From an uncultured delta proteobacterium (lineage in GTDB: Bacteria; Desulfobacterota; Binatia; UBA9968), in NCBI GenBank assembly GCA_963804165.1, contig CAWDPO010000013.1, forward strand, positions 46,976 to 110,975: a stretch of DNA of 64,000 nucleotides, given 5' to 3'. How positions within the stretch are numbered: position 1 is the first letter of the stretch; every line of letters starts with the position of its first letter. The translations under genes and the position numbers were made by a program. Shown piece by piece: positions 28,785 to 47,890 of this stretch. The notes beneath the pieces are model-generated. The model worked only from the letters and a program-made list of their open reading frames with translations, ran no database searches and had not been told where the DNA came from.

Positions 28785-28844
28785 CGAATATAAACACGTA
28801 ACACACGTATTGTACGCTTCCAACTCGGTATGAGGTATCGCAAA

Positions 28845-29324: not shown

Positions 29325-29353
29325 GGTAACACGAATTGCAGTTTCATACTATT
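29325..29353. promoter_or_regulatory. putative NikR operator 2 (upstream of the TonB-dependent receptor)
   Basis: GGTAACACGAATTGCAGTTTCATAC; first 14 bp identical to the reverse complement of operator 1. Confidence 0.7.
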
Positions 29354-29371
29354 CCAAGGACCCTGAGAACC

Positions 29372-32664: not shown

Positions 32665-32668
32665 CAAA

Positions 32669-33454
32669 ATGTCGAAACAATTTTCCCTCGCTCCCTCTCT
32701 CGTGGCGTCGACTCTAATCCATCTCACGGTGCTCGTGGTGGCGTCGACGGTGGTCGGTCAACGGAACCATTTCCCGGAGCCAGATCCAATTTCGATCGCG
32801 CTCTTGGATCCAATTGAGGACAACAAATCGATTCGTCCGTCTATGGAGAAGGCGACAAGGACGGCGCCTCCGAAACCACCGCCCGCAAAACGTATGCGTG
32901 AATCGGTCTTCACCGAGCCAGCTCCGCACCCGGCGGTTAAGAACGAAATTACCAAAACGGATGAAACCAAAACGTCGCCGTCAAAGACCCTGAATTCGAC
33001 TCCGGAGAGTACAACTCTCGAAGGTGGCGGTAGCGCATCCGGAGTGGACGATCGCGCCGGTGGCGATATCGGCATCGCGACCGGCTCCGGGAACGCTGGA
33101 AACGGCACTGGCACAGCAATCGCCGGCATCGGACCCGGCTCCGGCGCGCCCGGGTCGCCAGCTCGAATCCCCCCGGTTCGCACCAACCGCGAGGCTAGAC
33201 CGATTCAAACCGCCCGCGCCTTGTACCCGCCGATGGCTCTGCGCATGGGATTGGAAGGCGATGTGATGCTCAGCATCGAAGTCGACCCCGAAGGCAAAGT
33301 CACCAGGGCGGAAATTATCAAGAGCGGCGGCGCGGGATTCGACGAAGAAGCGCTCAAAGCAGTGAAGCAGTCGCGCTTTGAGCCGGCGCAGCGCAACGGT
33401 CAGCACGTCCCCGCGGAGTTTAGTTACGTTTATCGTTTCAGGTTGCAAAGATGA
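32669..33454 (+). CDS. tonB: TonB family energy transducer
   Basis: TM with 'SxxxH', Pro/Gly-rich linker, 'YPPMALRMGLEGDV', 'FDEEALKAVKQSRFEPA'. Confidence 0.9.
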   Translation: MSKQFSLAPSLVASTLIHLTVLVVASTVVGQRNHFPEPDPISIALLDPIEDNKSIRPSMEKATRTAPPKPPPAKRMRESVFTEPAPHPAVKNEITKTDETKTSPSKTLNSTPESTTLEGGGSASGVDDRAGGDIGIATGSGNAGNGTGTAIAGIGPGSGAPGSPARIPPVRTNREARPIQTARALYPPMALRMGLEGDVMLSIEVDPEGKVTRAEIIKSGGAGFDEEALKAVKQSRFEPAQRNGQHVPAEFSYVYRFRLQR

Positions 33455-34108: not shown

Positions 34109-35119
34109 ATGCGTTCCAAATGGAAATTCTTCCTGGTGTTGGTATGGCTTTGTCTAAGCTTAGGCTGCCAGAATAAGGAGCAGAACCGGGTTCCCGCCAG
34201 CGAGCAAAAATTCAAAATCGTCTCGACGGTCGCGCCGATCACGAGCATCGTGGAAAATGTCGCCGGGGACAAAGCGGATCTTTCTGGAATCATTCCCGAG
34301 GGAATCAACTCGCATACTTTTGAGCCCGCGCCGTCGGACAGCCGATTGCTGAGCGGCGCGCAACTGATCATCCTGAACGGGCTCGATCTGGAAACCCCCA
34401 CACTAAAGCTCGCGCAAGCGAATTCGCCGCAGGGCGCATCGATCTATTCTCTTGGCGACAAAACGGTAACTGAAGCAGAGTACATCTACGATTTCAGTTT
34501 TCCCAAGGAGCAGGGCCATCCCAATCCGCACCTGTGGTTAAATCCGGCATACGCCACGCGTTACGCGACTCTGGTGCGCGACGAGCTGATTCGCCTCGAT
34601 CCGAAAAACAAATCCGCGTACGAACAAAACACCGCACAATTTGTAAAGAGGCTCCAAGCGCTTGATCAAGCAATTAAAAATTCGATCCAAACCATTCCCG
34701 CGAACAACCGGCGCTTGCTCACCTACCACGACTCCTGGCCCTATTTTGCGCGCCGCTACGGCTTTCAAGTGATCGGCGCGGTGCAACCGTCGGACTTTGC
34801 CGATCCCGGCCCCAAGGAAGTGATTCGACTGATCGAGCAGATTCGCAGAGAAAAAGTTCCGGCGGTTTTTGGCTCGGAGGTTTTTCCAAGCCCCGTCCTC
34901 GCCCAGATCGCGCGTGAAGGGAAAAGCAGATATATAGACAAGCTCCGCGATGATGAGTTGCCCGGCAAGCCCGGCGATCCGCGGCATTCGTATACCGGCA
35001 TGATGATAGAAAATATGACGATCATGTTCGAAGCTCTCGGCGGCTCGGCAGAAGCGCTGAAGAAGATCGATCCGACGCCGGTCGCCGGCTCGCACGCCGA
35101 CTATCGGAGAAAAAACTAA
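34109..35119 (+). CDS. metal ABC transporter substrate-binding lipoprotein (ZnuA/TroA cluster A-I)
   Basis: Lipobox LSLGC, 'NSHTFEP', 'NGLDLE', 'NPHLWL', 'YHDSWPYFA'. Confidence 0.92.
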   Translation: MRSKWKFFLVLVWLCLSLGCQNKEQNRVPASEQKFKIVSTVAPITSIVENVAGDKADLSGIIPEGINSHTFEPAPSDSRLLSGAQLIILNGLDLETPTLKLAQANSPQGASIYSLGDKTVTEAEYIYDFSFPKEQGHPNPHLWLNPAYATRYATLVRDELIRLDPKNKSAYEQNTAQFVKRLQALDQAIKNSIQTIPANNRRLLTYHDSWPYFARRYGFQVIGAVQPSDFADPGPKEVIRLIEQIRREKVPAVFGSEVFPSPVLAQIAREGKSRYIDKLRDDELPGKPGDPRHSYTGMMIENMTIMFEALGGSAEALKKIDPTPVAGSHADYRRKN

Positions 35120-35122
35120 CCC

Positions 35123-35986
35123 GTGGCAAATCCGCACGACCATCGCCCCGGCGATCCACACAGCCTCCATCCGCCCGGCCTCGAAGAGCGCCCCGTTGCT
35201 CGCGTCACTGCCGTTCCGCTCGTCGAGCTCGCCGACGTGAGCAACGGTTATGGAGCCACGCCGGCGTTGACCCGCGTGTCGTTAAAAATATGGCCGGGAC
35301 AATTCATGGCCATCGTCGGACCCAATGGCGGTGGCAAGACCACGTTGCTGCGTACCGTGCTCGGCATGGTTCCGGCGACGTCTGGAAAAGTGTTGCTGCG
35401 CGGACAAGAGTTAAAACGTTCGTCGTTGGAACGCATTGGCTACGTGCCGCAATTGGAAACCATCGATTGGAATTTTCCCATCACCGTCGAAGAAGTGATC
35501 GGCATGGGTTTCTTCGTCAAGAGCCGTTGGTTCGGCGGCATTGGCGATAAGGAGAAACGCAAGCTACGAGAAATTATGGAACGCTTGAATCTTGCCGGCT
35601 TGGGTCATCGCCACATTCGGGAACTCTCCGGCGGCCAACAGCAAGCGGCGTTCATCGGACGGGCTCTGTTGGGCGATCCCGAGTTGATCTTGCTCGACGA
35701 GCCCGCCTCGGGACTCGATATCCGCTCGCGCGACGACGTGATTCACTTCTTGCACGAAATTAATCATCAAGGAGTTGCCATCGTCCTGACGGCGCATGAT
35801 TTGAACTGGGTGGCCGCCCATCTGCCCTGGGCTGTGTGCTTGAATCGCCGCCTGATTGCCGAAGGCCCGCCGAACGAAGTGTTCACTGCCAAGGTTTTAC
35901 AAGATGTCTACACCGGCGAGATGGTGGTCCTGCACCAAGATGGCATGGTCATGATCGGCGAACGTCCCCACGCGCCCCATAATTAA
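35123..35986 (+). CDS. metal ABC transporter ATP-binding protein (ZnuC-like)
   Basis: GPNGGGKT, 'GYVPQ', LSGGQ, LLDEP, 'AHDL'. Confidence 0.92.
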   Translation: MANPHDHRPGDPHSLHPPGLEERPVARVTAVPLVELADVSNGYGATPALTRVSLKIWPGQFMAIVGPNGGGKTTLLRTVLGMVPATSGKVLLRGQELKRSSLERIGYVPQLETIDWNFPITVEEVIGMGFFVKSRWFGGIGDKEKRKLREIMERLNLAGLGHRHIRELSGGQQQAAFIGRALLGDPELILLDEPASGLDIRSRDDVIHFLHEINHQGVAIVLTAHDLNWVAAHLPWAVCLNRRLIAEGPPNEVFTAKVLQDVYTGEMVVLHQDGMVMIGERPHAPHN

Positions 35987-36007
35987 ACTAAATTCATGGT
36001 TCCAAAA

Positions 36008-36087
36008 GTTCCAGTCGTTCCAATCGTTCATTGCGTTTCGGTCCGTCCTCACCCTCGGAACATTTGAAACTTTGGAACGACTGGAAC
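36008..36087. repeat. intergenic inverted repeat (REP-like hairpin)
   Basis: Perfect 16 bp arms GTTCCAGTCGTTCCAA (36008-36023) and TTGGAACGACTGGAAC (36072-36087). Confidence 0.8.
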
Positions 36088-36100
36088 GTCTTCTAAATCC

Positions 36101-36937
36101 ATGACTTTTTTAAGTCCCTTTGAATACGAATTTTTTCGCAACGGGTTGATCGCCGCCGTCGTCATCGGCGCGCTCTGTGGTTTTATCGGCGTCTACGTCG
36201 TGCTGCGCCGCATGAGCTACATCGGCCACGGCTTGTCCCATGCCATTTTCGGCGGCGCGGTGCTCAGCTACGTATTGAATATCAATTTTTTTATCGGCGG
36301 CGGTCTGTGGGCGCTTTTCGCGGGCGTCTTGATTCATTGGATCAGCCACCGCCGCTGGGTCGGGGCTGACGCCGCAATCGGCGTCGTGACCACCTCGAGT
36401 TTTGCTTTAGGCGTTGCGATCATCTCTACCCACCGCACTTTCACTCGCAACATCGAATCCGCGCTGTTCGGCAATATCCTCGGCATCACTCAAACTGACG
36501 TCTGGATCGTTGTCTTTATCTCTCTGCTGGTGTCCGGCGCGCTTTTTTTGATCCGTCGGCCGCTGCTATTCTCAACGTTCGATCCCGAAGTCGCATCGGC
36601 TTACGGCGTGGCGACCGGCAAGATCGATCTCCTCTTTATTATGCTCCTAGCCGTTACGGTTCTCGCCTCGACGCAAATCCTCGGCGTGACGTTGGTCGCC
36701 GCGGCCATGGTGATTCCGCCGGTCATCGCGCGTTACTTGACGCAGCGATTCCAAACTCTGCTGATTGTCTCACCGCTGCTCGGCGCGTTTTGCGGCGCTG
36801 CCGGCATGTTTTTGAGTTTTCATTTCGATATCTCCTCCGCCGCCACCATCGTGCTCACCTCTGCCGCACTTTTCATCTTCGTCGAGCTCGCCCTGTTCGC
36901 GCGCGGCAAAGAGCCGGCGCCGATTCACGAGCATTGA
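36101..36937 (+). CDS. metal ABC transporter permease (ZnuB-like)
   Basis: 'GVYVVLRRMSYIGHGLSHA', 'LFGNILG', 'FDPEVA'. Confidence 0.92.
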   Translation: MTFLSPFEYEFFRNGLIAAVVIGALCGFIGVYVVLRRMSYIGHGLSHAIFGGAVLSYVLNINFFIGGGLWALFAGVLIHWISHRRWVGADAAIGVVTTSSFALGVAIISTHRTFTRNIESALFGNILGITQTDVWIVVFISLLVSGALFLIRRPLLFSTFDPEVASAYGVATGKIDLLFIMLLAVTVLASTQILGVTLVAAAMVIPPVIARYLTQRFQTLLIVSPLLGAFCGAAGMFLSFHFDISSAATIVLTSAALFIFVELALFARGKEPAPIHEH

Positions 36938-37069
36938 GAGCGGCTCGTTCCTCATTCCGTTCGGTGCGGCAACGTGGGTATATTCATAAGGCCAACGATC
37001 GCTGGAAATCCTCGATCTTAAGTTCGCGTCGAAATTATGCTGAAATGATCTGCCGAGAAGGGAATTGAG

Positions 37070-37474
37070 ATGACACTACGCAACCTGATTGCGATAGCCG
37101 CCTCGATGATTGCATTGCCGCTCTTCGCCTGGGCGCAACACGATCATTCGACACCGGCGAAACCCGCCACTGCAAAGACCGCGAAACCGGCGCCCAAACC
37201 GGCGGAGGGCGCGAGCATCAAGATTATTTCACCGACCACTGGCCAGGTCCTCAAAGGTGACAAAGTGCCTATCGAGTATAAGCTCACCAAAGGTAAGCGC
37301 GGCCACCACGCCCACGCCTATGTGGACGGCGAGCTAATGGGTATGTTCGAAAGCGAAAAGGGCACGCTCAACGGCATCAAACCCGGCAAACATTTATTGG
37401 AGCTGCGCGTCGTCGCCACCGATCACGAAACCGAGTTGAACGCCAGCGACAAGGTCCAGTTCACAGTCAAATAG
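37070..37474 (+). CDS. His-rich periplasmic putative metal-binding protein (Ig-like)
   Basis: Signal peptide then QHDH; 'GHHAHAYVDG', 'PGKHLLEL...TDH'. Confidence 0.75.
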   Translation: MTLRNLIAIAASMIALPLFAWAQHDHSTPAKPATAKTAKPAPKPAEGASIKIISPTTGQVLKGDKVPIEYKLTKGKRGHHAHAYVDGELMGMFESEKGTLNGIKPGKHLLELRVVATDHETELNASDKVQFTVK

Positions 37475-37503
37475 TGTGCACTGCCTGCACAAAGCCCGGC
37501 TGC

Positions 37504-37532
37504 TTGCGCTGTCAAAGCGGTCCGACTAGGAT
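37504..37532 (+). promoter_or_regulatory. putative sigma70 promoter upstream of the RAPP leader ORF
   Basis: TTGCGC-17 bp-TAGGAT, 15 nt before the ATG at 37548. Confidence 0.4.
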
Positions 37533-37547
37533 GGCCCGTAATTGCCG

Positions 37548-37946
37548 ATGAACCCCGGAAGACCAGTCTCTAAACACCAGCGCGGCCTATACCTGAGCGT
37601 CGCCGCCGCGTTCTGGTTTTTTCTCGCCGCGTCCGCGCCGCACCGGGTGCATCATTTTTTCGTCGGGCAAGTTCTTGCGCCGCGGGCGCAAATCGCCGTC
37701 CACGCCCAGGAGCGCGGTGAGCATCACAGCCACGATGATCATGACCGTCAACACGACCAACGACCGCTGCAGCAAAACGATTGCAGCGTCTTGTCCGTCG
37801 CTCAAAACGCGCACGCTTCAATCGTTCAGCCGTTTTCCTTTACCGTTCTCGAATGCGCGGTTACGCGCCGGCACGAACGGCCCGTAATAAGCGCGCCATC
37901 GTTCAATCCGGCACCTTTTTCTCAGCGCGCGCCGCCCCTGCTCTAG
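37548..37946 (+). CDS. DUF2946/CruR/CutF-like exported leader protein with His-rich region and C-terminal RAPP motif
   Basis: Hydrophobic N-terminus, HRVHH, EHHSHDDHDRQHD, Cys, Pro-rich tail ending QRAPPLL*. Confidence 0.75.
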   Translation: MNPGRPVSKHQRGLYLSVAAAFWFFLAASAPHRVHHFFVGQVLAPRAQIAVHAQERGEHHSHDDHDRQHDQRPLQQNDCSVLSVAQNAHASIVQPFSFTVLECAVTRRHERPVISAPSFNPAPFSQRAPPLL

Positions 37947-38175
37947 CCTTTTCCTGTTTTTCCCAAACTACTTTCGCCGTTATCGTTGAGCTCGCACTTC
38001 GATAGGTTATTTGTCGAACGAGAGGTTTAAATGTTGCTTCGCCGCCAATCCGTCGGCGGGTCTGCTGCTTTGATGGCACCGAATCGTCGAATCGCGGCGA
38101 GATCTGTGTGCGCATCGCGGTAAAAGCGATTTGGCCTAATGATCGAATCATTAAGCGACCAGGCAGGTGATAGGT

Positions 38176-39501
38176 ATGAGAGCGTATTTCACCAGATCGG
38201 CATCAATTCTATGCTGCTTGCTTTTTTTCGGATGTAGTTCCAATACGGCCGTGCCGGCCGCGGCAAGCCGGACGAACCGGGTGACGTTCGGACCGGAGAT
38301 CAGCATCGGCAACGCGGAAGCGAATCCCGCGACGCCGTTTCTGCGTTACGCTCCAGACGGCCGGCTCTTTGCTGTATGGACCGAGGACCACGATACACCG
38401 TGGCCGCAAGGAAAAGATTCCACCGGACACCATCGTATGTCGGGCGATCGAGCGCCGTCGCCGATGCGCAACGTATTTCTCGCCTGGTCGACGGACAGAG
38501 GAAAAACTTGGTCAGCGCGCAAGCGGGTGAATAGCGAAGTCGAAGCCGTCCAAGGAGAAGAAAACGGACCCAAAGTCGCGTTCGACGCCAACAACCGGGC
38601 CTACGTTGTCTGGTCGATCCCGGGAAGGAAAGGAGACAAGACCCGCGCCAATATTCGCTTCGCTAGGGACGACGGCAAAGGTGGCTTTACGCCTGCGCGA
38701 ACCTTGAACGAAATTGAGGACGCCGCTCGCTTTCCGATCATCGAAGCGACGCCCGCAGGCGATTTCCTGATCGCCTGGATCGACCGGCGCATCGACAATC
38801 CGAAACCGCGCCAACTCTATTTAATTAGGCTCGGTGGCGACGGGAAAGCGCTGACGAAGAATTATCCGGTCGGGGAAGGCCTTTGTGAGTGTTGCAAACT
38901 GGGCGTCGCATTCGCCGGCGGCAGCAAAACGGTCTATATGGTGGACCGTGAAGTAGACGGCAATAAAATTCGCAACCACGTGCTACGCAAGTCGACGGAT
39001 GGTGCCGCGACCTTCAGCGCGCCGGTCGAAATCAGTGACGACGGCTGGCAAGTGCCCTCCTGTCCACACTCGGGCCCGAGCATCGGTCGCGACCGCCGCG
39101 GTTGGCTCCACGTGACCTGGTTCACCCTAGGCCGCTCGGAAAAAGAAGCGGGCATTTATTACAGCGTGTCGAAAGACGATGGCAAAAGCTTTGAACCTCG
39201 CCAGCTGGTGCACGCCAACACGGCGCCGGAAACTCTCTATGCCAACTTAGCGGTGGGCGATGACGATAACATTTACCTGGCATGGAGTAATCTCGACAAT
39301 CGCAGCCGGGCGCAAATATTCATGCGCACGATTGCAAGCGATGGTAAAACCTGGAGCCCGATACAGCAGATCAGCGACGCTAAAGCCAACGCCAGCCGGC
39401 CGGTTCTGGCGTTGCGCGAGAATCACGTGCACATTGCTTGGACGGAAACGGACAGTGAGGACTCACGCGTGGTCCTCAGAAGCGCGGCGGTGGACCGGTG
39501 A
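38176..39501 (+). CDS. BNR/Asp-box (sialidase-like) lipoprotein with CECC and CPH motifs
   Basis: Lipobox LFFGC; Asp boxes STDRGKTW, STDGAATF, SKDDGKSF, SDGKTW; 'LCECCK', 'WQVPSCPHSGP'. Confidence 0.8.
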   Translation: MRAYFTRSASILCCLLFFGCSSNTAVPAAASRTNRVTFGPEISIGNAEANPATPFLRYAPDGRLFAVWTEDHDTPWPQGKDSTGHHRMSGDRAPSPMRNVFLAWSTDRGKTWSARKRVNSEVEAVQGEENGPKVAFDANNRAYVVWSIPGRKGDKTRANIRFARDDGKGGFTPARTLNEIEDAARFPIIEATPAGDFLIAWIDRRIDNPKPRQLYLIRLGGDGKALTKNYPVGEGLCECCKLGVAFAGGSKTVYMVDREVDGNKIRNHVLRKSTDGAATFSAPVEISDDGWQVPSCPHSGPSIGRDRRGWLHVTWFTLGRSEKEAGIYYSVSKDDGKSFEPRQLVHANTAPETLYANLAVGDDDNIYLAWSNLDNRSRAQIFMRTIASDGKTWSPIQQISDAKANASRPVLALRENHVHIAWTETDSEDSRVVLRSAAVDR

Positions 39502-40079
39502 AGTCAAATTCAATTGTGGCGATACTCCTCATCCATTGGCGGAATGTGAGGTTGTTGGCATCAGCGCTCTGTTGCGCCGCCGCGATTGCGCTAGCGCCGG
39601 CGACCGGCTGGACGCAGCACGAGCACAACACCGGCCAAAGCGCCGTGCCATCGGTCGGTGGTCCGGCGATACCGTTCGATCTCAAATCGCTCGAAGGCAA
39701 GTCGGTCGGATTGGCAAGCTTCCGCGGTCAGCCGTTAGTGCTGAACTTTTTCGCTAGTTGGTGCGATCCCTGCCGCGAGGAAATGCCGCTGATCAATGAT
39801 CTCGCGTCAAGGAGTGCCACGGAGGGTTACAGCGTGCTGGGCGTCGCCGTCGAAGACAGCCGTGCCGCGGTGACGGAGTACGCCAAAGAAACCAAGCTGG
39901 TCTTTCCGATCGCGCTCGACTTGAACAGCACGGTGAAGCGCGCCTATCGCATCTTCGGCCCGCCGGCGACGTTTTTCATCGATGCTCAGGGCGTCGTTCG
40001 CGACATCGTTCTTGGTCCATTGACACGCGAGCGGGCACTTGAAGCACTTAAGAAAACCAGAGCGGTCGTGAAGAACTAA
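39498..40079 (+). CDS. TlpA/ResA-like thiol-disulfide reductase
   Basis: 'LNFFASWCDPCREEMP', 'GPPATFFID'; QHEH after the signal peptide. Confidence 0.9.
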   Translation: MKSNSIVAILLIHWRNVRLLASALCCAAAIALAPATGWTQHEHNTGQSAVPSVGGPAIPFDLKSLEGKSVGLASFRGQPLVLNFFASWCDPCREEMPLINDLASRSATEGYSVLGVAVEDSRAAVTEYAKETKLVFPIALDLNSTVKRAYRIFGPPATFFIDAQGVVRDIVLGPLTRERALEALKKTRAVVKN

Positions 40080-40100
40080 AAACGATTGTTTTTCAAATCG

Positions 40101-41018
40101 ATGTTTTCTGACAGAACGCCCATTTACGTGGGTGCGATCACTTTCCTGTTAATCGTGGCGACTCCTTATGCGGCGGCAGGCGTGCCAATTCGTTCGCAAG
40201 ACGGCCCACTTCGGGTAGTCGAATCCTACCTCCGGGCAACTCAAGCGCGCGACTTTGGAACGGCCTACAGCTACATTTCCAACACCGACCAACGGATCAG
40301 GGACAAAGCCGGCTATCTGCGATCTCAGGAATACCTCAGCGGTTTCGCCCTCGAGCTTGCCAACCGACTCGTCGCTAAAATGAAAGTGTGGGTGATCAAT
40401 CAAAAAGTCGGACCGGCGAAGGCCCGTTTCGAAGTCGGCTATCGACGACCCGCCGGTGATGAAATTTCGTCACGACTTTTCGATTGGAATGCCAGCAAGC
40501 TCAACGCTCTACCGCAGAGCGAACAGCGGCGCCTGGCCGAAGCTTTGGAAAATTTCCAAAGATCAGGAAAGATGGTATCCCTCGAAGGGCACGAGACTTT
40601 GGATCTCGTACGTGAGAAAGACGGATGGAAAATTTTTCTCGATTGGGCAGCGCGCTCGCGCGTTATTTTCGCCTCGACGACGCCGTCCTCCGGTGCACTG
40701 GAGGTTCAGTTTCCACGCAATGATTTTCTGGTTGCAACCAACGAGCCGTTTCAAATCGACTTCACGGTCAGAAACCGAAGCCCGCGCGCGACGGTCGCCA
40801 GACTCACCCACCTTATCGAGCCGCGCGGTTTGGCCAAGAACGTGGAGATGATCGCGTGCGGTTCACTGTCGCCGCTGCGGCTCAAGCCGGGTCAAGCTCG
40901 GGAAGTGTCCAGCTCGTATATCTTAGGAGGTGATCTTTCTCCCCGATCGCGTCTCTTGATCATCTACCAATTTACTTTAGAGTCCAAACTCGCGGCGACG
41001 AACCCGTCTCGCGAGTGA
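40101..41018 (+). CDS. exported protein with an NTF2-like N-domain and Cox11/CtaG-like C-domain, paralog 1
   Basis: Shares 'YL.A..ARDF..AY.Y/F', 'LFDW', 'LV.E.DGW.IFL.WAA' and 'H.IEP...C...P..L.PG' with two neighbours. Confidence 0.7.
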   Translation: MFSDRTPIYVGAITFLLIVATPYAAAGVPIRSQDGPLRVVESYLRATQARDFGTAYSYISNTDQRIRDKAGYLRSQEYLSGFALELANRLVAKMKVWVINQKVGPAKARFEVGYRRPAGDEISSRLFDWNASKLNALPQSEQRRLAEALENFQRSGKMVSLEGHETLDLVREKDGWKIFLDWAARSRVIFASTTPSSGALEVQFPRNDFLVATNEPFQIDFTVRNRSPRATVARLTHLIEPRGLAKNVEMIACGSLSPLRLKPGQAREVSSSYILGGDLSPRSRLLIIYQFTLESKLAATNPSRE

Positions 41019-41042
41019 GCGACGCAGAATCCGGTTATTTTG

Positions 41043-41957
41043 ATGGCAAGTAACGACCGCTGTCCGCGAGGGAGATTCAATCCGCCGCGATCCTTGCGGA
41101 TCGCTCTCTTCCTAGTGCTCGTGGCTCAGGAAACTCTTCACTGTGCCGAACAGTCGTTCAATCAGCACGCATCCGCCTCCGTGATTCACGCTTATCTGCG
41201 GGCGACTTATGCCCGCGACTTCGCCACGGCGTATCGCTTTGTCTCCGCCGAAGATCGTAAAGTGCGCGACCTAAATCGCTACCTCCGGCAACGTGGACCG
41301 TATGACGGCTTCATTCTGGAAGCAGCGAAGAAGCTGAGCGAATTCGTCGAAATTCAAGCGCTGAAGACGCGCGAATCGCCGAACCGCGTTCACGTGTCGA
41401 TCAAATACCGCGTTCCCGACCCGCAAAAACTCGCACTGCTACTATTCAACTGGGATCCGTACCGCTTGAATGCTTTGCTGCCGACCGAGCAAAAACAACT
41501 TATCGATTTGCTGGACAAACGGGGTACCGAAGGCTCACTCGCGATGAGCCAAGGCGAAGAAGCCTTCGAGTTGGTCAAAGAATCTGACGGCTGGCGCATT
41601 TTTTTGAACTGGGCCGCGGGCGTGAAGATCCCGCTCCGGCTCGACTTATCTAAGTCAACGGACCTGGACGTTGCGCTTTCGAAGAATGAATTTGTCCTAC
41701 AGCCCGGCGAGCTATTCGAGATTGTTTTGCGAATCAAGAACCACGCCAAGCAGCCGGTTACTGTGCGCATCGGACATCTAGTCGAGCCCAGCTCGATCGC
41801 CGATTTTCTCGATTTTGTTCAATGCGGTTTTCTCCTACCGGTCACAGTTCAGCCCGAAAAGGAACAAGAATTTTCAGGCACCTACATGTTACGAGGCAGC
41901 CTCCCCGAAGGCATTCGTCAATTGACTTTGACCTACGACTTCCGCCAGCTTAAGTAA
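41043..41957 (+). CDS. exported protein with an NTF2-like N-domain and Cox11/CtaG-like C-domain, paralog 2
   Basis: 'YLRATYARDFATAYRF', 'QPGELF..V..KN', 'HLVEP', 'VQCGFLLP', 'LPEGIRQLTLTYDF'. Confidence 0.72.
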   Translation: MASNDRCPRGRFNPPRSLRIALFLVLVAQETLHCAEQSFNQHASASVIHAYLRATYARDFATAYRFVSAEDRKVRDLNRYLRQRGPYDGFILEAAKKLSEFVEIQALKTRESPNRVHVSIKYRVPDPQKLALLLFNWDPYRLNALLPTEQKQLIDLLDKRGTEGSLAMSQGEEAFELVKESDGWRIFLNWAAGVKIPLRLDLSKSTDLDVALSKNEFVLQPGELFEIVLRIKNHAKQPVTVRIGHLVEPSSIADFLDFVQCGFLLPVTVQPEKEQEFSGTYMLRGSLPEGIRQLTLTYDFRQLK

Positions 41958-42059
41958 TCCTTTGACGCGAGAGGGCTCCCGTATCTGGCGCGCCCATCTT
42001 TTTTGTGATTAATTAAAAATGGAATTTGTTCGTCTAATCCATCGTGAGGCGAGAAACTG

Positions 42060-42653
42060 ATGAAAAACTTTAGCCGCATTTTTGTTCTGCTGTTTTGGAC
42101 CGTCGTCGGTCCACGTCAATTGGGCGAGGTCATTCTCGTTCGACCCCTTTCGATCGGCGCTGCCAACGCTCAAGATTCCGCCTTTGAATCGAAAAAGATC
42201 GTTCCGTTCGTGCCCTCGCCACAAGTGGTGGTGGATAAGATGGTCGAGCTCGCGGGTGTGAAAAAAGGCGACGTCGTGTTCGACCTGGGTTCGGGCGACG
42301 GCCGGATCGTCATCGCGGCGGCAAAAAGAGGCGCCACGGCGATCGGCTTTGAAATCGACGGCGATCTGGTGAAGGAGTCGCGCGAGAATATTCGCAAGGC
42401 CGGCGTTCAGGATTTAGCCGAGATTCGCCAGCAGGATATTCTCACCGTCGACTTTTCGCCTGCGTCAGTGGTGACCATGTATTTGCTGCCCGACGTCAAC
42501 TTGAAGTTGAAACCCAATCTTTTGAGTCAGCTCAAACCCGGCTCGCGTCTCGTCTCTCATGCCTTCGACATGGGCGACTGGAAACCGGAGAAAGTCGAGC
42601 GGGTCGAGGGGCGTACGGTCTATTTTTGGACCATTCCGGCAAAGGGACGCTAA
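42060..42653 (+). CDS. SAM-dependent methyltransferase (FAM173/DOT1-like bacterial type)
   Basis: 'VPFVPSP..VV..M..LA', 'DLGSGDGRIVIAAAK', 'VVTMYLL', 'LKPGSRLVSHAF'. Confidence 0.85.
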   Translation: MKNFSRIFVLLFWTVVGPRQLGEVILVRPLSIGAANAQDSAFESKKIVPFVPSPQVVVDKMVELAGVKKGDVVFDLGSGDGRIVIAAAKRGATAIGFEIDGDLVKESRENIRKAGVQDLAEIRQQDILTVDFSPASVVTMYLLPDVNLKLKPNLLSQLKPGSRLVSHAFDMGDWKPEKVERVEGRTVYFWTIPAKGR

Positions 42654-42698
42654 TCCGAGCGGGGGATCCTCGACCAAGATTCTGCCTTGACCACCCGA

Positions 42699-43592
42699 AT
42701 GCCCCGCCTTGTTAAAAATTTTCTTCTGTTCGTTTTTACGGCTGCCACGCTGGCGCTGCCCGGGATCTATTGGATCAACACGGTCGGCGACAGACGCCCT
42801 GAGGACCCGACCCAGGTTTTGTCGAAATATCTTAAATTCCTTTATGCGCGCGATTTTCGTCACGCGTATCGATTCATCGCCAGCGAAGATCAGCAGTTGA
42901 AACCGCAAAAAGATTACATCCGCGAGCACGACCCGTTCAGTGGTTTCGCGTTGCAAGCCGCGCGCAAGCTGGCCGGCCTGATCGAGCTCAGGCCGGTATC
43001 GGAGCAACCGGATGGGAAAGCCAGCCGCGTCCGGGTCGCTATGAAGCTTCCTGACGCCAAAGGGATCTCGGAGTTATTGCTCGACTGGGATGAAAAACGG
43101 TTGAACGCCCTGTCGGTGCCGGCGCAAAATAAGATTATTTCGACCATCGACAACCTGATTCGGCAACGGAAATTGCCGATGATCGAGGGCGAGGAAGAGT
43201 TTGTCTTGGTGAAAGAAGACGCGCTTTGGAAAGTTAAACTCAATTGGGCTGCCGGCGTTAAGGTTAAGTTTGCCACCGTTCTGCCGCACAACGGCGACCT
43301 GGTGGCGGAACCGATCACCAAGGAAACGGTTGCACGCTCGGACGACTTATTTACAATCGGATTCAAAGTAAAAAACCGCGCCTCCCGCGAAGTCGTCACT
43401 CGGATCGCGCACCGGGTCGAGCCCAAGGAGTTTGCACAATATCTGGATCTCGTCGAATGCGCTCTTTTACTTCCTGTGCGGCTTCGCCCGGGCGAAGAGC
43501 AAACTTATAACAGCACCTATGTCGTTCGCGGCGATTTGCCGGACGGCATCAAAGGCCTGGACGTTACCTATGAGTTCAAAGTCGAAAATTAA
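42699..43592 (+). CDS. membrane-anchored protein with an NTF2-like N-domain and Cox11/CtaG-like C-domain, paralog 3
   Basis: 'YLKFLYARDFRHAYRF', 'HRVEP', 'YLDLVECALLLP.RLRPGEEQ', 'LPDGIKGLDVTYEF'. Confidence 0.72.
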   Translation: MPRLVKNFLLFVFTAATLALPGIYWINTVGDRRPEDPTQVLSKYLKFLYARDFRHAYRFIASEDQQLKPQKDYIREHDPFSGFALQAARKLAGLIELRPVSEQPDGKASRVRVAMKLPDAKGISELLLDWDEKRLNALSVPAQNKIISTIDNLIRQRKLPMIEGEEEFVLVKEDALWKVKLNWAAGVKVKFATVLPHNGDLVAEPITKETVARSDDLFTIGFKVKNRASREVVTRIAHRVEPKEFAQYLDLVECALLLPVRLRPGEEQTYNSTYVVRGDLPDGIKGLDVTYEFKVEN

Positions 43593-44199
43593 CCGGGCAC
43601 TTTTTTTCGCCCTGACCACGACGACTCTTTTCTCGCCAGTCGCCTGGTCTCATATCCCTATTCCGCCCAAAGCACCGAGCGAAATAGGCCGCCGAGTCGT
43701 GAAAACCGCCGTGCCGGACTTCAATCTCACCGATCAAGACGGCAAACCGTTTCACTTCGCCGCGGCAAGAGGAAAATTGATTCTGATCAATTTCATATTC
43801 ACGACCTGTCCTGACGTCTGCCCGCTGTTAACGGCCAATTTCGCAGCGATCCATCGGACGTTGGACGAAAACAAGGTCAAAGACTATCTGTTGCTCAGCA
43901 TTACCACCGATCCCGAACGGGACACGGCGCCGATTTTGAAGGACTACGCCGGCCGCTTCAAAGCCGACTTGAAGCATTGGTCGTTTCTGACCGGCACCCG
44001 CCCGGAGTTGGCCAAAGTATGGAAAGGCTTCGGCATCAACGTCGTCAAAAACGAGTCCGGACAAGTGCAGCACACGACGTTCACGACTTTGGTGGATCGC
44101 CAAGGTAACCGTCGGGTCGACTACTACGGCGACAAATGGCAGGACAAGGAAGTTCTCAATGATCTTGGGAGGCTGCGCGCGCGAAAACCTTTAAGTTAA
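43570..44199 (+). CDS. SCO1/SenC family protein
   Basis: 'FIFTTCPDVCP', 'ITTDPERD', 'VQHT'. Confidence 0.9.
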   Translation: MSSKSKINRALFFALTTTTLFSPVAWSHIPIPPKAPSEIGRRVVKTAVPDFNLTDQDGKPFHFAAARGKLILINFIFTTCPDVCPLLTANFAAIHRTLDENKVKDYLLLSITTDPERDTAPILKDYAGRFKADLKHWSFLTGTRPELAKVWKGFGINVVKNESGQVQHTTFTTLVDRQGNRRVDYYGDKWQDKEVLNDLGRLRARKPLS

Positions 44200-44234
44200 T
44201 ACTCGCGCGTCGAAGACTCAGAATTTTTCAGTGC

Positions 44235-44813
44235 ATGCCGAACCCGTCGAAGCAGTTCTTTCCGTTTTTTAGTGCTCTGCCCCTGATCGCTGCCTGCCTA
44301 TTCACAAACGCGGCAAGAGCTGCCCAGAACGATCGGGGAATTTTCGAGATTCAAATCAAGGATCATCGTGAAGCGATCGGTGATTTTGCCAAGTTCGATA
44401 TCGCGCTCGATAAACTTCTGATCAGTCCCAGGGCGGGACTGATGTTCTGGCAAACGGGTTGGAAAGAGCTACAGCCGTCGGTCGCCGTGGTGGATCTGAC
44501 CCAATACGTCGGCAAAAAAACTGCGCGAGTGTATCGCGGTGAAATTAACCCGGGATCATTCGACGCATTTCATGTAAAAATTAAGAGCATCGACGCCCTG
44601 CTGAAAAAGACCCGCCGCTCGACATCGGTCAAAGATATCGTTGGCGCGGTGAAACTGTCTTTTCAGGTGCCCGCTAAAGGAGAGACCGTTCTCGTGCTCG
44701 ATCTCGTCGTCACCGACTTTTCCGACCACCCCCCGCGCGGCTATGAACTCGGTATCAAAGGCTACGAGCTCTACGTTAACGGCAGACTCATGGAGAGAAT
44801 ACCGCCCGGATGA
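44235..44813 (+). CDS. exported DUF4382-like protein
   Basis: Signal peptide, 'IKDH', 'VVDLTQY', 'PGSFDAF', 'VLDLVV.D.SDH'. Confidence 0.55.
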   Translation: MPNPSKQFFPFFSALPLIAACLFTNAARAAQNDRGIFEIQIKDHREAIGDFAKFDIALDKLLISPRAGLMFWQTGWKELQPSVAVVDLTQYVGKKTARVYRGEINPGSFDAFHVKIKSIDALLKKTRRSTSVKDIVGAVKLSFQVPAKGETVLVLDLVVTDFSDHPPRGYELGIKGYELYVNGRLMERIPPG

Positions 44814-45189
44814 TTATGCCTCTAGGTTCGTCGATTCGAGCTGGCGCCCTTCGAGTTACTAGCCGTCGAAGTTTTCGTGCCCGCGAAAGTTTCTCGATAC
44901 TTCACAATTTCGTGACTTGAAACTTTACTCACGCCACGCGCATCCAGATCGACGACGAAGGAACACGAAAAACGCAACCTGATTAAATATTTTCTCGGCG
45001 GTCTTAGCCGCCGGCACAACAGGTCGCCGGCCCGCCCGCGCTCCCTCAGCTGATCCCGCCTCGGGACACTACGTTTCTCAATCCATCTCGTAGTCCGTCT
45101 GAAGAATCCGCGTTTTGTCCTCGGTTCCCTCATCTCTACACAAACGCTAAATTTCCCGTTAGAATCTTTCCGCTCGGTTAGCTCCGATC

Positions 45190-45837
45190 ATGGACGCATC
45201 TAAAACTCGGTTTATCCTGCTCGGCCTCGCTGTCGTTGGTTTGGGCATCGTTCTCGGCACGGCGCTCTGGCTTAGACTCGGTCCGCGCGCGCAATTCGGG
45301 CGCGGCGCGCCTGACTCTGCCCATGGCTTAAATCAGTACGGAATCGTGCCGGATTTTTCGTTCACGGAAAGAAACGGCAGCGCCATGGGCTTGGCCCAGT
45401 TACGCGGCAAAATATGGATCGCCGACTTTATTTACACGACCTGCACCGACACTTGCCCGCTGCAAACCGCCACGATGGCCAAGTTGCAAGCGGAGTTTGC
45501 CGCCAAGCCGGATATTCAGCTGGTGTCGTTTACCGTCGATCCCGAACGCGACACACCTCAAGCCCTGACTCTTTATGCGAACAAGTATCAGGCCGATGCC
45601 AAGCGCTGGTATTTTTTGACCGGCGAGCGCGACCGAATTTTTCGTCTGATCCTGGAAGGCTTTCATTTAGCCGTGGCGTCGATGCCCAACAATGGCGACC
45701 CCAGCGGCATGATCCCACACAGCCCACGTTTTGTGTTGGTGGACAAGGAAGCGCGCATACGCGGGTACTACGACAGCCGTGAATCGGCGGCGCTGGTCCG
45801 GCTGAAAAACGACATCGACAGCTTAACGAAGGGATAG
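45190..45837 (+). CDS. SCO1/SenC family protein (membrane anchored)
   Basis: 'FIYTTCTDTCP', 'VDPERDT', 'PHSPRFVLVD..ARIRGYYD'. Confidence 0.92.
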   Translation: MDASKTRFILLGLAVVGLGIVLGTALWLRLGPRAQFGRGAPDSAHGLNQYGIVPDFSFTERNGSAMGLAQLRGKIWIADFIYTTCTDTCPLQTATMAKLQAEFAAKPDIQLVSFTVDPERDTPQALTLYANKYQADAKRWYFLTGERDRIFRLILEGFHLAVASMPNNGDPSGMIPHSPRFVLVDKEARIRGYYDSRESAALVRLKNDIDSLTKG

Positions 45838-45842
45838 CAGCG

Positions 45843-46718
45843 ATGGCCAACGAGAGAAGTAGAAAAGGCAAACAAGCGACGGCGAGTGTGGTGATGCGCG
45901 AGGGGCCCAATTGGCCGCTATTCGGTCTCGCGCTGCTCGGCATGGCGCTATCCGGCTATCTCACTTTTACGGCGTGGCAAGGGAACCTCGTGGCTTTTTG
46001 CACCGAAGGGACGGGCTGTGACGTTGTGCTCAATAGCCGCTGGTCCACGCTCCTCGGCATGCCGACTTCGTTCTGGGGTTTTCTCACCTACGCGCTGCTC
46101 GCAGCGGTGGCCTGGAACAAAAATGCCGCGGATCAATGGCGTTGGGCGTGGGTGATTGCGTTTTTCGGTTTGCTTTACAGCCTGTATTTGACCTCGATCT
46201 CGTTTTTCGAATTGCAGGCCGCCTGCCCATACTGCCTGACTTCGCTCGGTTTGATGGCGGCCATCGTCATCGTTACGACGTTTCAAAAACCGGCCAATTT
46301 GCCGAAATTTTCCTGGGGTCCGTGGTTGGCAAAAACTGTCGGCGTCGCCGTAGTCATGATTGTCGCGCTGCATTCCTATTACGCCGGCTACTGGGGCAAT
46401 GCCCCGGGACCGGAAGACCCGTGGGTCCGCGGTCTTGCCGAGCATCTCTCGAAGACCGACGCCAAATTTTACGGCGCCTCTTGGTGTCCCCACTGTTCCG
46501 AGCAAAAACACTTGTTCGGCAGCTCGGTCAAACGCATCCCCTATGTGGAATGCAGCCCGGGCGGCCAAAACGCCCCCTCCGCGCCGGTCTGTAAAGAAAA
46601 AAATATTACAAACTATCCGACGTGGATCATTAACGGACAGCGCTACACCGGCATCCAACCTTTAGATGCGCTCGCGCAATTGAGTCAATATAATAAGGGG
46701 CAAGGGGGCAAGCCATGA
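45843..46718 (+). CDS. VKOR-thioredoxin fusion (DsbB/DsbA-like disulfide formation)
   Basis: 'CTEGTGCDVVLNSRWS', TM 'CPYC', thioredoxin 'FYGASWCPHC..QK..FG', 'YPTW.ING'. Confidence 0.92.
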   Translation: MANERSRKGKQATASVVMREGPNWPLFGLALLGMALSGYLTFTAWQGNLVAFCTEGTGCDVVLNSRWSTLLGMPTSFWGFLTYALLAAVAWNKNAADQWRWAWVIAFFGLLYSLYLTSISFFELQAACPYCLTSLGLMAAIVIVTTFQKPANLPKFSWGPWLAKTVGVAVVMIVALHSYYAGYWGNAPGPEDPWVRGLAEHLSKTDAKFYGASWCPHCSEQKHLFGSSVKRIPYVECSPGGQNAPSAPVCKEKNITNYPTWIINGQRYTGIQPLDALAQLSQYNKGQGGKP

Positions 46719-47191
46719 AATCGGGCGAATCGGTCTTTAAGCTAACGATGCTTTTGGCGATCCTCGCGGCGACGGTTCCATTTGCGCCTCGATCAGCGCA
46801 AGCCGATCCTTCGAAGTATCCCGAGTTCGCCCTGCAAACACTGCCTGATAATATCACGCCTGCGTTTATCAATATCGAGGAGCTGGTCGCAGCGTTAAAG
46901 GCGGGCGCCAAGCCGGTGATCATCGACGTGCGCAGCGATGAAGAGTTCCGCGAAGTACATATCTTGGGCGCCGTCTCCGCGCCGCTGGGGGAATTCAAGG
47001 AGTATCTGAAAAGCATTCCACGGGACCGGCCGGTCGTCCTCTATTGAGCGTGCCCCCATCACCTGGCCAGTTTGGCCTATGGCATTCTCTATGAAAACGG
47101 CTACCGCAACATGAAAGTACTCGATGAAGGTCTCACCGGCTGGTACCAGAAACGCTATCCCATGGAAGGCACCAAGGCTCCTGGATCGTGA
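46715..47191 (+). CDS. exported rhodanese-like selenoprotein (LYUAC), 158 aa with Sec readthrough
   Basis: TGA at 47045-47047 sits at the catalytic Cys position; the frame continues ACPHHLASLAYGILYENGYRNMKVLDEGLTGW...YP and stops at 47191, 3 nt before queC. Confidence 0.85.
47051..47084 (+). promoter_or_regulatory. putative bacterial SECIS hairpin
   Basis: Apical GGCCA-GTT-TGGCC (loop starts with G, 22 nt after TGA) on a lower CCAT/ATGG or TGCC/GGCA stem. Confidence 0.6.
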
Positions 47192-47194
47192 ATC

Positions 47195-47890
47195 ATGGCC
47201 GGCGAAAATGCGGTAATCCTGCTTAGTGGCGGCATCGATTCGGCCACTGCCGCCGCCATCGCGAAGCAGCAGGGCTTCGAGTTACACGCGCTCAGCTTTC
47301 GCTATGGCCAGCGCCACGAACGCGAGCTCGAATCCGCCCGCAAAGTCGCTTCGTTCTTGCAGGTTCAATCTCACAGAGTCATTGAGTTCGATCTTCGGGC
47401 TATCGGCGGGTCGGCGCTCACCGATGGGATCGAAGTTCCCAAAGGGCGCAGCGAAACGGAAATCGGATACGGCATTCCGGTAACCTATGTGCCGGCGCGC
47501 AACACGATATTTCTCTCCTTCGGTTTGGCGCTGGCCGAGCGGATCGGCTCGCAGGATATTTTCTTCGGCGCCAATCAACTCGATTACAGCGGCTACCCCG
47601 ACTGCCGTGAGGAATATATCCGCGCTTTCGAACAGATGGCGAATCTCGCCACCAAGGCGGGAGTCGAAGGCAAAAGCCGATTGACGATTCAGACGCCTCT
47701 GCTCAAAATGACCAAGGCCGCGATTATTAAAATGGGCCTGAAGCTCGGATTCGACTACGCTCTCACCTGGAGTTGTTACGATCCGTCACCCGACGATCGA
47801 GCCTGCGGCCGTTGCGATAGTTGCCAGCTCAGGCTGAGTGGGTTCGAAGCAGCCGGCGCCATCGATCCGATATGCTATGCCGGACGATAA
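47195..47890 (+). CDS. queC: 7-cyano-7-deazaguanine synthase
   Basis: 'LLSGGIDS', 'YGQRH', 'TYVPARN', 'YPDCR', 'TWSCY', 'CGRCDSC'. Confidence 0.96.

Follow-up and report, generated by a model that had tools for sequence, protein, structure and literature searches.

Little is understood so far of how heme-copper oxidases acquire CuB. PCuAC is the usual periplasmic copper donor to SCO, and for the Caa3_CtaG of Bacillota and Actinomycetota a part in CuB assembly has been tentatively proposed. We analyzed a 64,000-nucleotide stretch of DNA from an uncultured delta proteobacterium (Desulfobacterota, Binatia, UBA9968; GenBank assembly GCA_963804165.1, contig CAWDPO010000013.1, positions 46,976 to 110,975 of the forward strand), referred to below in its whole length as the window, which carries three paralogous genes, P1, P2, and P3, each encoding a protein with an N-terminal hydrophobic segment, an NTF2-like domain, and a domain resembling Cox11 (CtaG).

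Among described systems, Cox11 is the closest to these proteins. Both cysteines of its CXC (CFC) motif, a membrane-proximal cysteine, and a lysine at position -3 are essential in the Cox11 proteins studied, according to the passages of three papers cited here (PMC9172173, PMC9232578, and PMC9145763). The portion of PMC9145763 that we draw on describes a Cox11 dimer in which the CXC cysteines hold a Cu2S4 cluster, presents Cox11_CtaG as limited to Proteobacteria and eukaryotes, treats Cox11_CtaG and Caa3_CtaG as alternative CuB factors depending on the bacterium, and calls the proteins that assemble subunit I diverse and "poorly understood." The same portion describes PCuAC as a protein with a cupredoxin-like fold and a His/Met motif that delivers copper to Sco and Cox11_CtaG in Rhodobacter sphaeroides. 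In our own alignment of 16 canonical Cox11 proteins, the anchor is followed by the motif VPLYxxFC, and C39 and K132 are invariant.

Our analysis places P1 to P3 on a derived branch within a hitherto undescribed family of two-domain Cox11 proteins; a literature search outside subscription-only papers, by titles and abstract openings, found no Cox11-NTF2 fusion and nothing on Cox11 in Binatota. Judging from sequence comparison and gene context, we consider it moderately probable that the three proteins are periplasmic copper chaperones with a membrane anchor, acting together with SCO on the copper centers of cytochrome oxidase.

Three paralogous two-domain proteins

An initial annotation of the window, made by a model from the letters and their open reading frames (ORFs), had described three exported proteins of about 300 amino acids (aa). 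All three ORFs are present on the plus strand with hydrophobic N-termini, and from the sequence we infer export and an outer-face topology. Their features are as follows, with residue numbers counted from the TTG starts.

40101..41018, plus strand: P1; ORF from TTG at 40086, 310 aa; ATG at 40101
about 40197-40646 and about 40653-40979, plus strand: NTF2-like and Cox11-like domains of P1, preceded by an N-terminal anchor
40809-40811 and 40857-40859, plus strand: His242 and Cys258 of P1; motif MIACGSLSP; no other Cys in P1
41043..41957, plus strand: P2; ORF from TTG at 41040, 305 aa; ATG at 41043
about 41163-41612 and about 41619-41948, plus strand: NTF2-like and Cox11-like domains of P2
41775-41777 and 41823-41825, plus strand: His246 and Cys262 of P2; motif VQCGFLLP
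42699..43592, plus strand: P3; ORF from TTG at 42687, 301 aa; ATG at 42699
42705-42785, 42795-43247, and 43254-43583, plus strand: predicted transmembrane helix, NTF2-like domain, and Cox11-like domain of P3
43410-43412 and 43458-43460, plus strand: His242 and Cys258 of P3; motif VECALLLP; no other Cys in P3

The N-terminal hydrophobic segments have best 19-residue Kyte-Doolittle means of 1.89 (P1), 1.39 (P2), and 1.93 (P3), and AlphaFold2 predicted residues 7 to 33 of P3 as a helix. The database copy of P3 is 297 aa long, consistent with a start at 42699. Pairwise BLASTP gave 33% identity between P1 and P2 (E 7e-58), 31% between P1 and P3 (E 8e-56), and 40% between P2 and P3 (E 3e-69), and both domains are conserved among the three, at 28 to 41% identity per domain (BLASTP); on these alignment scores, far beyond chance, the three are clear paralogs. 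The shared motifs that the annotation had listed for both domains proved to be invariant columns of a three-way alignment, at Y48, L49, A54, R55, D56, F57, A60, and Y61 in the N-domain, further at L131, W134, L174, V175, E177, W181, L185, W187, A188, and A189, and at N230, H242, E245, P246, C258, P263, P268, Y294, and F296 in the C-domain. As it had also stated, only the first cysteine of the CFC motif is kept (IACGSL in P1, VQCGFL in P2, VECALL in P3), and the extra cysteines of P2, residues 8 and 35, are not conserved among P2 orthologs.

Homology to Cox11 and predicted fold

The Pfam model of Cox11, PF04442, matched P2 at 27.6 bits and P3 at 31.4 bits, and P1 at 19.9 bits, below the cut-off of 25 bits. 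At E values up to 0.1, Pfam returned PF04442 for all three proteins, together with a sub-threshold ZT_dimer match in P2, and no Pfam family matched their NTF2-like domain. The NCBIfam equivalog model PRK05089 gave 14.6 to 31.6 bits against a cut-off of 162, and because these scores are so far below it, P1 to P3 are, at the level of profile comparison, Cox11 homologs and not equivalogs. A profile of the three proteins searched against the PDB matched Sinorhizobium Cox11 (1SO9) at E 1e-6 and placed the family cysteine on the first Cys of QCFCF. When ortholog groups were compared by hhalign with the 16 canonical Cox11 proteins, the P3 group aligned at 97.7% probability (E 2.4e-12, 19% identity) and the P1 group at 96.0% probability (E 4.6e-9, 15% identity), and a branch of two-domain proteins with a complete CFC motif aligned at 100% (E 2.2e-39, 32% identity).

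P3 alone was folded with AlphaFold2, from 51 family sequences, and the model has a pLDDT of 94.5 and a pTM of 0.82. Its best PDB match in Foldseek was apoCox11 (1SO9; E 2.3e-5, TM score 0.69 normalized to the target, rmsd 2.7 Å, 25% identity), and an independent fold search (VIA) over 48,161 chains ranked 1SP0 first (Z 11.8, rmsd 3.3 Å), with an alignment covering 117 residues (P3 model residues 184 to 301). Together with PF04442 and hhalign, these top-ranked matches bear out the Cox11 fold that had been assigned to the C-domain. The N-domain had been called NTF2/Tim44-like, and the first half of that label stood: structural comparison matched residues 37 to 187 of P3 to many NTF2-like structures at Z 7.5 to 9.2 among the best 50 of the 48,161 chains, including 9VXG (Z 9.2), 3K7C (Z 9.1), 4XZZ (Csd6; Z 8.3), and 1MWR (PBP2a; Z 7.9), whereas Tim44 was absent among those best 50. 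The search tool calls this Z range common, and in the model the NTF2-like assignment reads as fold likeness, not homology.

The putative copper site and its evolution

A word-index search for the wider family recovered 600 proteins at E <= 0.001 among 1,876 candidates, with PF04442 in all 120 of the 120 matches listed, and an exhaustive profile search recovered 566 representative clusters at E <= 0.001, 110 of them at E <= 1e-30. We aligned the three paralogs with 48 full-length representatives (51 sequences) and found the Cys and His singled out by the annotation to be conserved across homologs, Cys258 in 51 of 51 sequences and His242 in 47 of 51. The full C-F-C motif is present in 21 of the 51, of which 17 have His242, and the single-Cys form (C-[GPAS]-x-x-x-P) in 30, every one of them with His242. 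A phylogenetic analysis of 78 family sequences (IQ-TREE in quick mode; 29 CFC, 49 single-Cys) extends this pattern, with His in 25 of 29 CFC rows and both Cys and His kept in 49 of 49 single-Cys rows. The annotation had read the histidine as a gain tied to the cysteine loss, and that part fails: because CFC-bearing two-domain relatives also carry it, the alignments identify His242 as an ancestral trait of the two-domain family rather than compensation for the lost Cys.

The two-domain family conserves neither a Cys after the anchor nor a Lys at -3. The position three residues before the Cys is occupied by M in P1, F in P2, and L in P3, and by I, V, L, or similar residues family-wide. Most P1-type proteins have Met there (MIAC), with Leu or Phe in the P2- and P3-type proteins; canonical Cox11 has its essential Lys at this position, and in P1-type copies the Met is a possible extra soft ligand. 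A Cys at positions 33 to 36, directly after the anchor, occurs in three of the four CFC members without His242 (P0227, P0228, and P0229) and in none of the 25 CFC members with His242; those three proteins perhaps represent two independent events, and the anti-correlation of His and Cys is suggestive, no more. The more likely reading of the alignments is that His242 takes the place of the classical membrane-proximal third Cys, and the anti-correlation would fit His242 as third ligand after the NTF2-like insert had moved the anchor away from the Cox11 domain.

In the tree, the CFC and single-Cys forms are separated by one change on one branch (SH-aLRT 99), and three single-Cys clades are supported, corresponding to P3 (97), P2 (89), and P1 (98), with one copy per clade per genome in the four fully sampled relatives from the window's genus. 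Because a single split separates the CFC from the single-Cys rows, the tree indicates that the second CFC Cys was lost once, and that the gene was then triplicated inside the family to which the window belongs.

Distribution in Binatia and beyond

The family is present in 35 of 41 genomes sampled from the window's order. Within the window's genus, all 19 copies from 7 relatives, and the window's own 3, are single-Cys, and in the sister families f2 and f3 all 8 copies have CFC plus His. These order-level genomes have no PF04442 match elsewhere, and hence no canonical Cox11 was found in them. Among 301 genomes sampled across the class, each with a completeness of 85% or more, PF04442 was found in 45, all from the window's order (f1, 25 of 36; f2, 3 of 4; f3, 16 of 23; plus genome G000), with every match beginning at model position 26 or later, and in 0 of the 237 genomes of 17 other families. 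The genus tallies include the unpublished genome G005 and the class tally G313, likewise unpublished; the alignments, tree, and motif counts contain neither sequence.

Copy number varies within this range. Three copies each are present in G003, G004, G014, G018, and G021, and G178 has a full triplet. G015, from the window's genus (98% complete), has P3 alone; within the window's own family, G294 (95% complete), G073 (97%), and G286 (98%) each have one P3-type single-Cys copy, and G227 and G303 have one CFC copy each. In that family too, G239 (98% complete) has one P2-type copy, and in G145 a single full-length P2-type gene is accompanied by a truncated C-domain ORF at another site. The triplet, whose recurrence the annotation had proposed to survey, thus returns in genus relatives and in G178, but lone copies occur in near-complete genomes. 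The family genes of G019 (C45:159118-162512) are broken into 8 pieces, and the COX1 genes of this genome are fragmented as well, which is either cluster decay or poor assembly.

These distributions bear on the suggestion of the annotation that P1 to P3 form a hetero-oligomeric metallochaperone. An obligate hetero-oligomer with a shared Cys/His metal site and a client other than a heme-copper oxidase is unlikely, because the near-complete genomes G015, G294, G073, G286, and G239 each have a lone single-Cys copy; moreover, paralog copy number (1 to 3) does not track oxidase number, and CFC relatives are linked to oxidase genes. For such a complex speak the age of the three paralog clades, each represented once per genome in four fully sampled genus relatives, the single Cys per chain, which favors an inter-subunit site, and the proteins of the genus cluster that have no assigned role (a BNR lipoprotein, a methyltransferase, and small His-rich proteins). 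CaMKII hub domains are also among the fold matches, and NTF2-like folds often oligomerize. Homo-oligomers of P1 to P3 are quite possible, since Cox11 is dimeric and NTF2-like folds have this tendency. Complex prediction for soluble P1, P2, and P3 with their own alignments scored 0.00 in two runs without controls, a result that counts neither way.

A scan of named species with the CFC-branch alignment gave 45 loci. Both domains are present in 16 of them, comprising 6 from Binatia, 3 from Methylomirabilota, 5 from Chloroflexota (Anaerolineales and Promineifilaceae), 1 labeled "uncultured bacterium," and 1 metagenome-assembled genome (MAG) labeled Hyphomicrobiales; the Cox11 domain stands alone in 29, which are canonical proteins of Alphaproteobacteria, Crenothrix, and Methylobacter. 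An outlying single-Cys cluster has one NCBI member labeled Candidatus Entotheonellia. A locus search with one protein, P0152, yielded 3 contigs, all short.

In f3, the Cox11-like protein is fused at its C terminus to DUF4382 in one ORF of about 480 to 570 aa. Three f3 genomes, 98 to 99% complete, have differing in-frame internal deletions in this fusion (L081 in G026, L082 in G030, and L083 in G028). These remove the NTF2-like domain and, wholly or for the most part, the Cox11 domain, with the CFC loop and last strands remaining in the G028 form; all three retain the anchor, DUF4382, ZnuCB, SCO, and COX1, and VKOR lies downstream in G028 and G030.

Gene neighborhood in the window

The annotation had placed the three paralogs among SCO and TlpA genes, and three SCO genes and a TlpA/ResA-like gene were indeed located. 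The neighboring features of the window are as follows.

16769-22217, minus strand: rRNA operon (5S 16769-16884; 23S 16953-19957; 16S 20660-22217; tRNAs 20132-20204 and 20393-20466)
27746-28381, minus strand: third SCO1/SenC gene
28350-28823, minus strand: c-type cytochrome
29336-33454, plus strand: TonB-dependent receptor, MFS transporter, and TonB; upstream part of the genus metal island
34109-36937, plus strand: ZnuA/ZnuC/ZnuB-type ABC metal importer, which adjoins the Cox11-like module across the order
37070-37474, plus strand: "small134," a small exported His-rich protein; recurrent neighbor of the family in Binatia
37542-37946, plus strand: His-rich ORF with a hydrophobic N terminus; weakly conserved in the genus, a doubtful gene for which Pfam gave no family
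38167-39501, plus strand: BNR/sialidase-like beta-propeller lipoprotein; lipobox FFGCSS
39498-40079, plus strand: TlpA/ResA-like periplasmic thiol-disulfide oxidoreductase; 4-nt overlap with the upstream gene, ends 21 nt before P1
42060-42653, plus strand: class-I SAM methyltransferase (MT2) with a hydrophobic N terminus, between P2 and P3; NF041081 128.6 bits, below the cut-off of 200
43432-44199, plus strand: SCO1/SenC gene SCOa; PF02630 100 bits
44235-44813, plus strand: DUF4382-like exported beta-sandwich protein; PF14321 22.7 bits, below the cut-off
45190-45837, plus strand: SCO1/SenC gene SCOb; 99.8 bits
45843-46718, plus strand: VKOR family protein (DsbB-analog type of periplasmic thiol oxidase); its C terminus weakly matches glutaredoxin/thioredoxin-like proteins
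46715-47047, plus strand: rhodanese-domain protein; 4-nt overlap with VKOR

The genes around the paralogs are closely packed: TlpA is followed after 21 nt by P1, after 24 nt by P2, after 102 nt by the methyltransferase, and after 45 nt by P3; SCOa, whose likely start is an ATG near 43570, overlaps the end of P3 by 23 nt, and then come DUF4382 (gap 35 nt), the second SCO (gap 376), VKOR (gap 5), and rhodanese (4-nt overlap). A promoter and terminator scan of 36900 to 47400 gave counts no higher than in shuffled sequence, so the operon boundaries are drawn from gene spacing. The complete rRNA operon explains a 7-kb stretch without long ORFs. Among the sequencing runs listed as matching, none was of RNA, and the six runs contained small shares (0.05 to 0.09) of the sampled words and were uninformative on expression or habitat.

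This setting gives some ground for an explanation in which the single-Cys proteins are no longer metal carriers but serve SCO, TlpA, and VKOR as scaffolds or as partners in thiol redox chemistry, for example through a mixed disulfide with the lone Cys or an NTF2-like pocket for a lipid, quinone, or peptide. The operon has three thiol-redox genes (TlpA, VKOR with its weak thioredoxin-like match, and rhodanese), three of the four residues essential in Cox11 are lost, the Cox11 domain has diverged strongly, to 15 to 19% identity with canonical proteins, and the NTF2-like domain has conserved or invariant residues of its own (A51, Y61, D68, P122, L174, and W181). We nevertheless regard a scaffold or redox role as improbable, given that a purely thiol role does not explain a His that is invariant beside the Cys in 49 of 49 single-Cys sequences, that among the CFC forms the anti-correlation of His and Cys speaks for the His as a ligand, and that copper genes flank single-Cys forms elsewhere, with SCO on both sides or a protein read by eye as CopC-like.

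Several of the neighboring genes have features of their own. The DUF4382 partner has invariant D43-H44-R45, D50, D156, D161, and H165, and none of its Cys or Met residues is invariant; its model has a pLDDT of 84, with a Bacteroides fimbrial protein as best fold match (Z 8.6), followed by transthyretin-like sandwiches, and the modeled fold is a generic beta-sandwich that offers no functional lead. The literature on DUF4382, outside subscription-only papers, consisted of archaeal glycoproteomics, and no link to NTF2-Cox11 was found in it. The BNR lipoprotein, which was seen in the genus clusters and also in G145, a g9 genome, has invariant C-E-C-C (240 to 243) and C299-P-H301 in 4 orthologs; its 4-nt overlap with TlpA suggests translational coupling, and a PDB sequence search gave weak sialidase matches (E 0.019) and no informative relative. 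The atlas clusters nearest to small134 are unnamed Binatota proteins, and its gene adjoins the Cox11-like gene in several Binatia genera, at times within a protein of about 417 to 433 aa.

The methyltransferase is the most conserved cluster gene in the genus (70 to 89% identity). At E <= 1e-20 its family has 3 to 15 matches per genome in 24 of 24 genus genomes, with 10 matches in the window's own genome (paralogs at C2:17857-18360, C43:283665-284132, C17:309544-310017, C45:48841-49257, and C10:167728-168165, among others), and it was detected in 0 of 11 f3 and 3 of 5 f2 genomes. It directly precedes the single-copy P3-type gene in G294 and G130, and in G003, G004, and G019 another methyltransferase paralog lies about 3 kb upstream of COX1.

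Gene neighborhood in relatives and other phyla

A core module of ZnuA/C/B, the Cox11-like gene, DUF4382, SCO, and VKOR is found order-wide, with VKOR as its conserved end. Its most constant feature is the Cox11-like gene with an SCO gene directly downstream; P3 is the core copy, always directly upstream of SCO. Single-Cys genes are flanked by SCO on both sides in G073 and G286, and in L087 and L089 they follow the genes of a c-type cytochrome and of a protein that looks CopC-like by eye. A Znu/Tro-type ABC importer adjoins the Cox11-like gene throughout the order (including loci L028 to L035), and a DtxR/MntR-type regulator takes the importer's place in L041, L042, and L045, with a ZIP transporter as well in L045. 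Gene contexts of CFC-branch loci are as follows.

L039 (Binatia): CopC, CusF-like, Cox11, DUF4382, SCO, DsbH-like thioredoxin, VKOR, rhodanese, QueC
L041 (Methylomirabilota-type): TlpA, Cox11, DtxR-type regulator, HMA-domain P-type ATPase, DUF4382
L042 (Methylomirabilota-type): as L041; the contig begins at the Cox11 gene
L045 (Methylomirabilis): TlpA, Cox11, SCO, DtxR-type regulator, ZIP transporter, multicopper oxidase
L046 (Anaerolineales): Caa3_CtaG, Cox11, FGE-sulfatase-like gene, DUF2383 gene on the opposite strand, COX2
L048 (MAG labeled Hyphomicrobiales): cytochrome c, Cox11, COX1-family subunit, FixO (cbb3-type)
L049 (Anaerolineales, closed chromosome; 420-7833): COX2, COX1, COX3, Caa3_CtaG, Caa3_CtaG, two-domain CFC Cox11, UbiA-family heme O synthase

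The copper-trafficking setting proposed for the locus is thus found both in the window, with SCO and TlpA, and in relatives, with CopC, CusF, or a CopA-like ATPase. These neighborhoods also contain the evidence for a module that handles another metal, such as zinc or manganese: ZnuA/C/B is the direct neighbor of the Cox11-like gene in the window cluster and in genomes of f2 and f3, L041, L042, and L045 have a DtxR-family regulator next to that gene, L045 has a ZIP transporter there as well, and the invariant His and Asp of DUF4382, with no invariant Cys or Met, are hard ligands. A role of this kind is very unlikely in our view. SCO, CopC, CusF, the HMA-domain P-type ATPase, and the oxidase operons are all tied to copper, and the domain itself is homologous to a Cu(I) chaperone whose first copper-binding Cys it keeps invariant.

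Oxidase content and the likely client

The genome that contains the window is 7.5 Mb in size and 81% complete. On another contig (C16) it has an aa3-type operon of COX2, COX1, CtaA, CtaB, COX3, a small ORF, and a second COX3, with neither Cox11 nor SCO. A COX1 split in two ORFs (profile positions 2 to 196 and 185 to 436) is present on contig C33 (locus L085; 7813-9030 and adjacent), with no oxidase genes around it; either an error in the assembly or a frameshift in a pseudogene explains the split. A qNOR-type enzyme is encoded on contig C43, and the genome has one multicopper oxidase.

No other PF04442 gene, no Caa3_CtaG, and no PCuAC was found in this 81% complete genome, and because it has an aa3 operon and none of these alternatives was found, the aa3 oxidase is the default client of P1 to P3. 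The absence of Caa3_CtaG counts for little here, because 5 of 5 relatives tested carry it and the assembly is incomplete; in G004, of the same genus, Caa3_CtaG lies about 2 kb downstream of a second COX1. PCuAC was found in 0 of 6 genomes, in a search to which 4 of 14 control genomes responded, and the negative result for PF02461 (ammonia/methane monooxygenase) in the window's genome is uninformative, as the control genomes were silent too. The annotation had left the client unnamed on the ground that the window has no heme-copper oxidase subunit; that observation is correct, with none among the 47 ORFs scanned with Pfam, but the aa3 operon on another contig and the CFC relatives beside cox genes now point to one. 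An assignment of one paralog to each oxidase was rejected, as copy numbers of 1 to 3 show no correspondence with the 1 to 8 COX1 matches across the genus.

Proposed function

Under the copper-chaperone reading, the ancestral two-domain Cox11 would have kept its CFC motif, with His242 substituting for the membrane-proximal third Cys. In the window's lineage the second CFC Cys would then have been lost once, leaving a Cys258/His242 pair on a remodeled loop (C-G/A-x-x-x-P), after which the gene would have triplicated. Each protein would sit on the periplasmic face of the membrane and bind Cu(I) through Cys258 and His242, with the rest of the site probably supplied by a partner or by another subunit of a homo-oligomer, and would cooperate with the downstream SCO and with TlpA, VKOR, and DUF4382 to serve the copper centers of the aa3 oxidase encoded on the other contig. 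Within this reading, direct CuB loading in the manner of classical Cox11 is a possible, tentatively held version, and donation of Cu(I) to SCO in a PCuAC-like role is slightly less so; the donor role is a serious alternative to direct loading because PCuAC was not found in 6 genomes and the Cox11-like gene is paired with SCO.

A number of observations weigh against copper chaperones acting on cytochrome oxidase. P1 to P3 lack three of the four residues essential in Cox11, and with one Cys a protomer would be unable to form the Cu2S4 dimer cluster as described in the cited part of PMC9145763. In the order sample, the single-Cys forms score 18 to 44 bits with PF04442 and the CFC forms 85 to 99, and such weak scores fit a changed function. 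The window has no oxidase subunit, the relatives have Caa3_CtaG, and G035 (97% complete) has a Cox11-like gene and no COX1 match. Conversely, the three f3 genomes described above have deleted the Cox11-like module yet kept COX1, and these deletions show that a genome can keep an oxidase without the module, at least if Caa3_CtaG is there.

A bolder form of the copper-chaperone reading is doubtful as it stands: the proteins may constitute a new class of copper relay, in which the Cys loss would have replaced the Cu2S4 cluster with a mononuclear Cys/His site, to which P1-type copies would add a Met. They might then donate copper to SCO where PCuAC is lacking, each paralog with its own SCO gene, so that the Cox11 fold would have moved from CuB insertion to the CuA/SCO branch, with the His/Asp protein DUF4382 as a further link.

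In addition to extending the Cox11 fold to Binatia, Methylomirabilota, and Chloroflexota, as a two-domain form with a probably different third ligand, these findings place Cox11 and Caa3_CtaG side by side within one cox operon (L049). They also provide a natural series, from CFC plus His to Cys plus His to in-frame domain deletion, that could show which ligands Cox11 chemistry needs and whether Cox11-fold proteins can feed SCO. P1 to P3 are small proteins with confident models and are soluble without their anchor, which makes the question directly testable, and they point to a variant route of copper supply to respiratory enzymes in a little-known bacterial group.

Comparison with known systems

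A functional analogy with PCuAC (PF04314) is possible, as P1 to P3 are putatively periplasmic and SCO-adjacent in genomes where no PCuAC was found. The two are not homologous: P1 to P3 have no PF04314 match (Pfam, E up to 0.1) and have one Cys and one His instead. Caa3_CtaG (PF09678) is a candidate for the same job and coexists with two-domain Cox11 in the Anaerolineales operon and in relatives of the window's genome; it is an unrelated multi-pass membrane protein, unlike P1 to P3. The NTF2-like domains of PBP2a, Csd6, and the putative transpeptidase 3K7C have the same alpha+beta cone fold as residues 37 to 187 of the P3 model.

The closest comparison is with Cox11/CtaG itself (1SO9/1SP0, Sinorhizobium meliloti), the CuB chaperone of aa3-type oxidase. 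P1 to P3 share its Ig-like beta domain, its N-terminal anchor with the domain outside the membrane (a topology predicted for P1 to P3), the invariant first cysteine of the copper motif, and the overall pattern N...P...C...L-PGE...Y-F. Unlike Cox11, they have an NTF2-like domain of about 150 residues between anchor and Cox11 domain, they lack the post-anchor Cys, the Lys at -3, and the second CFC Cys, and they have a conserved His where the canonical proteins have Phe (consensus ATFNVxP). Finally, CFC two-domain relatives are linked to oxidase genes in Anaerolineales (L049 and L046) and in one MAG (a cbb3-type in L048), whereas P1 to P3 are present as three copies at a distance from the cox operon, in a pairing with SCO.

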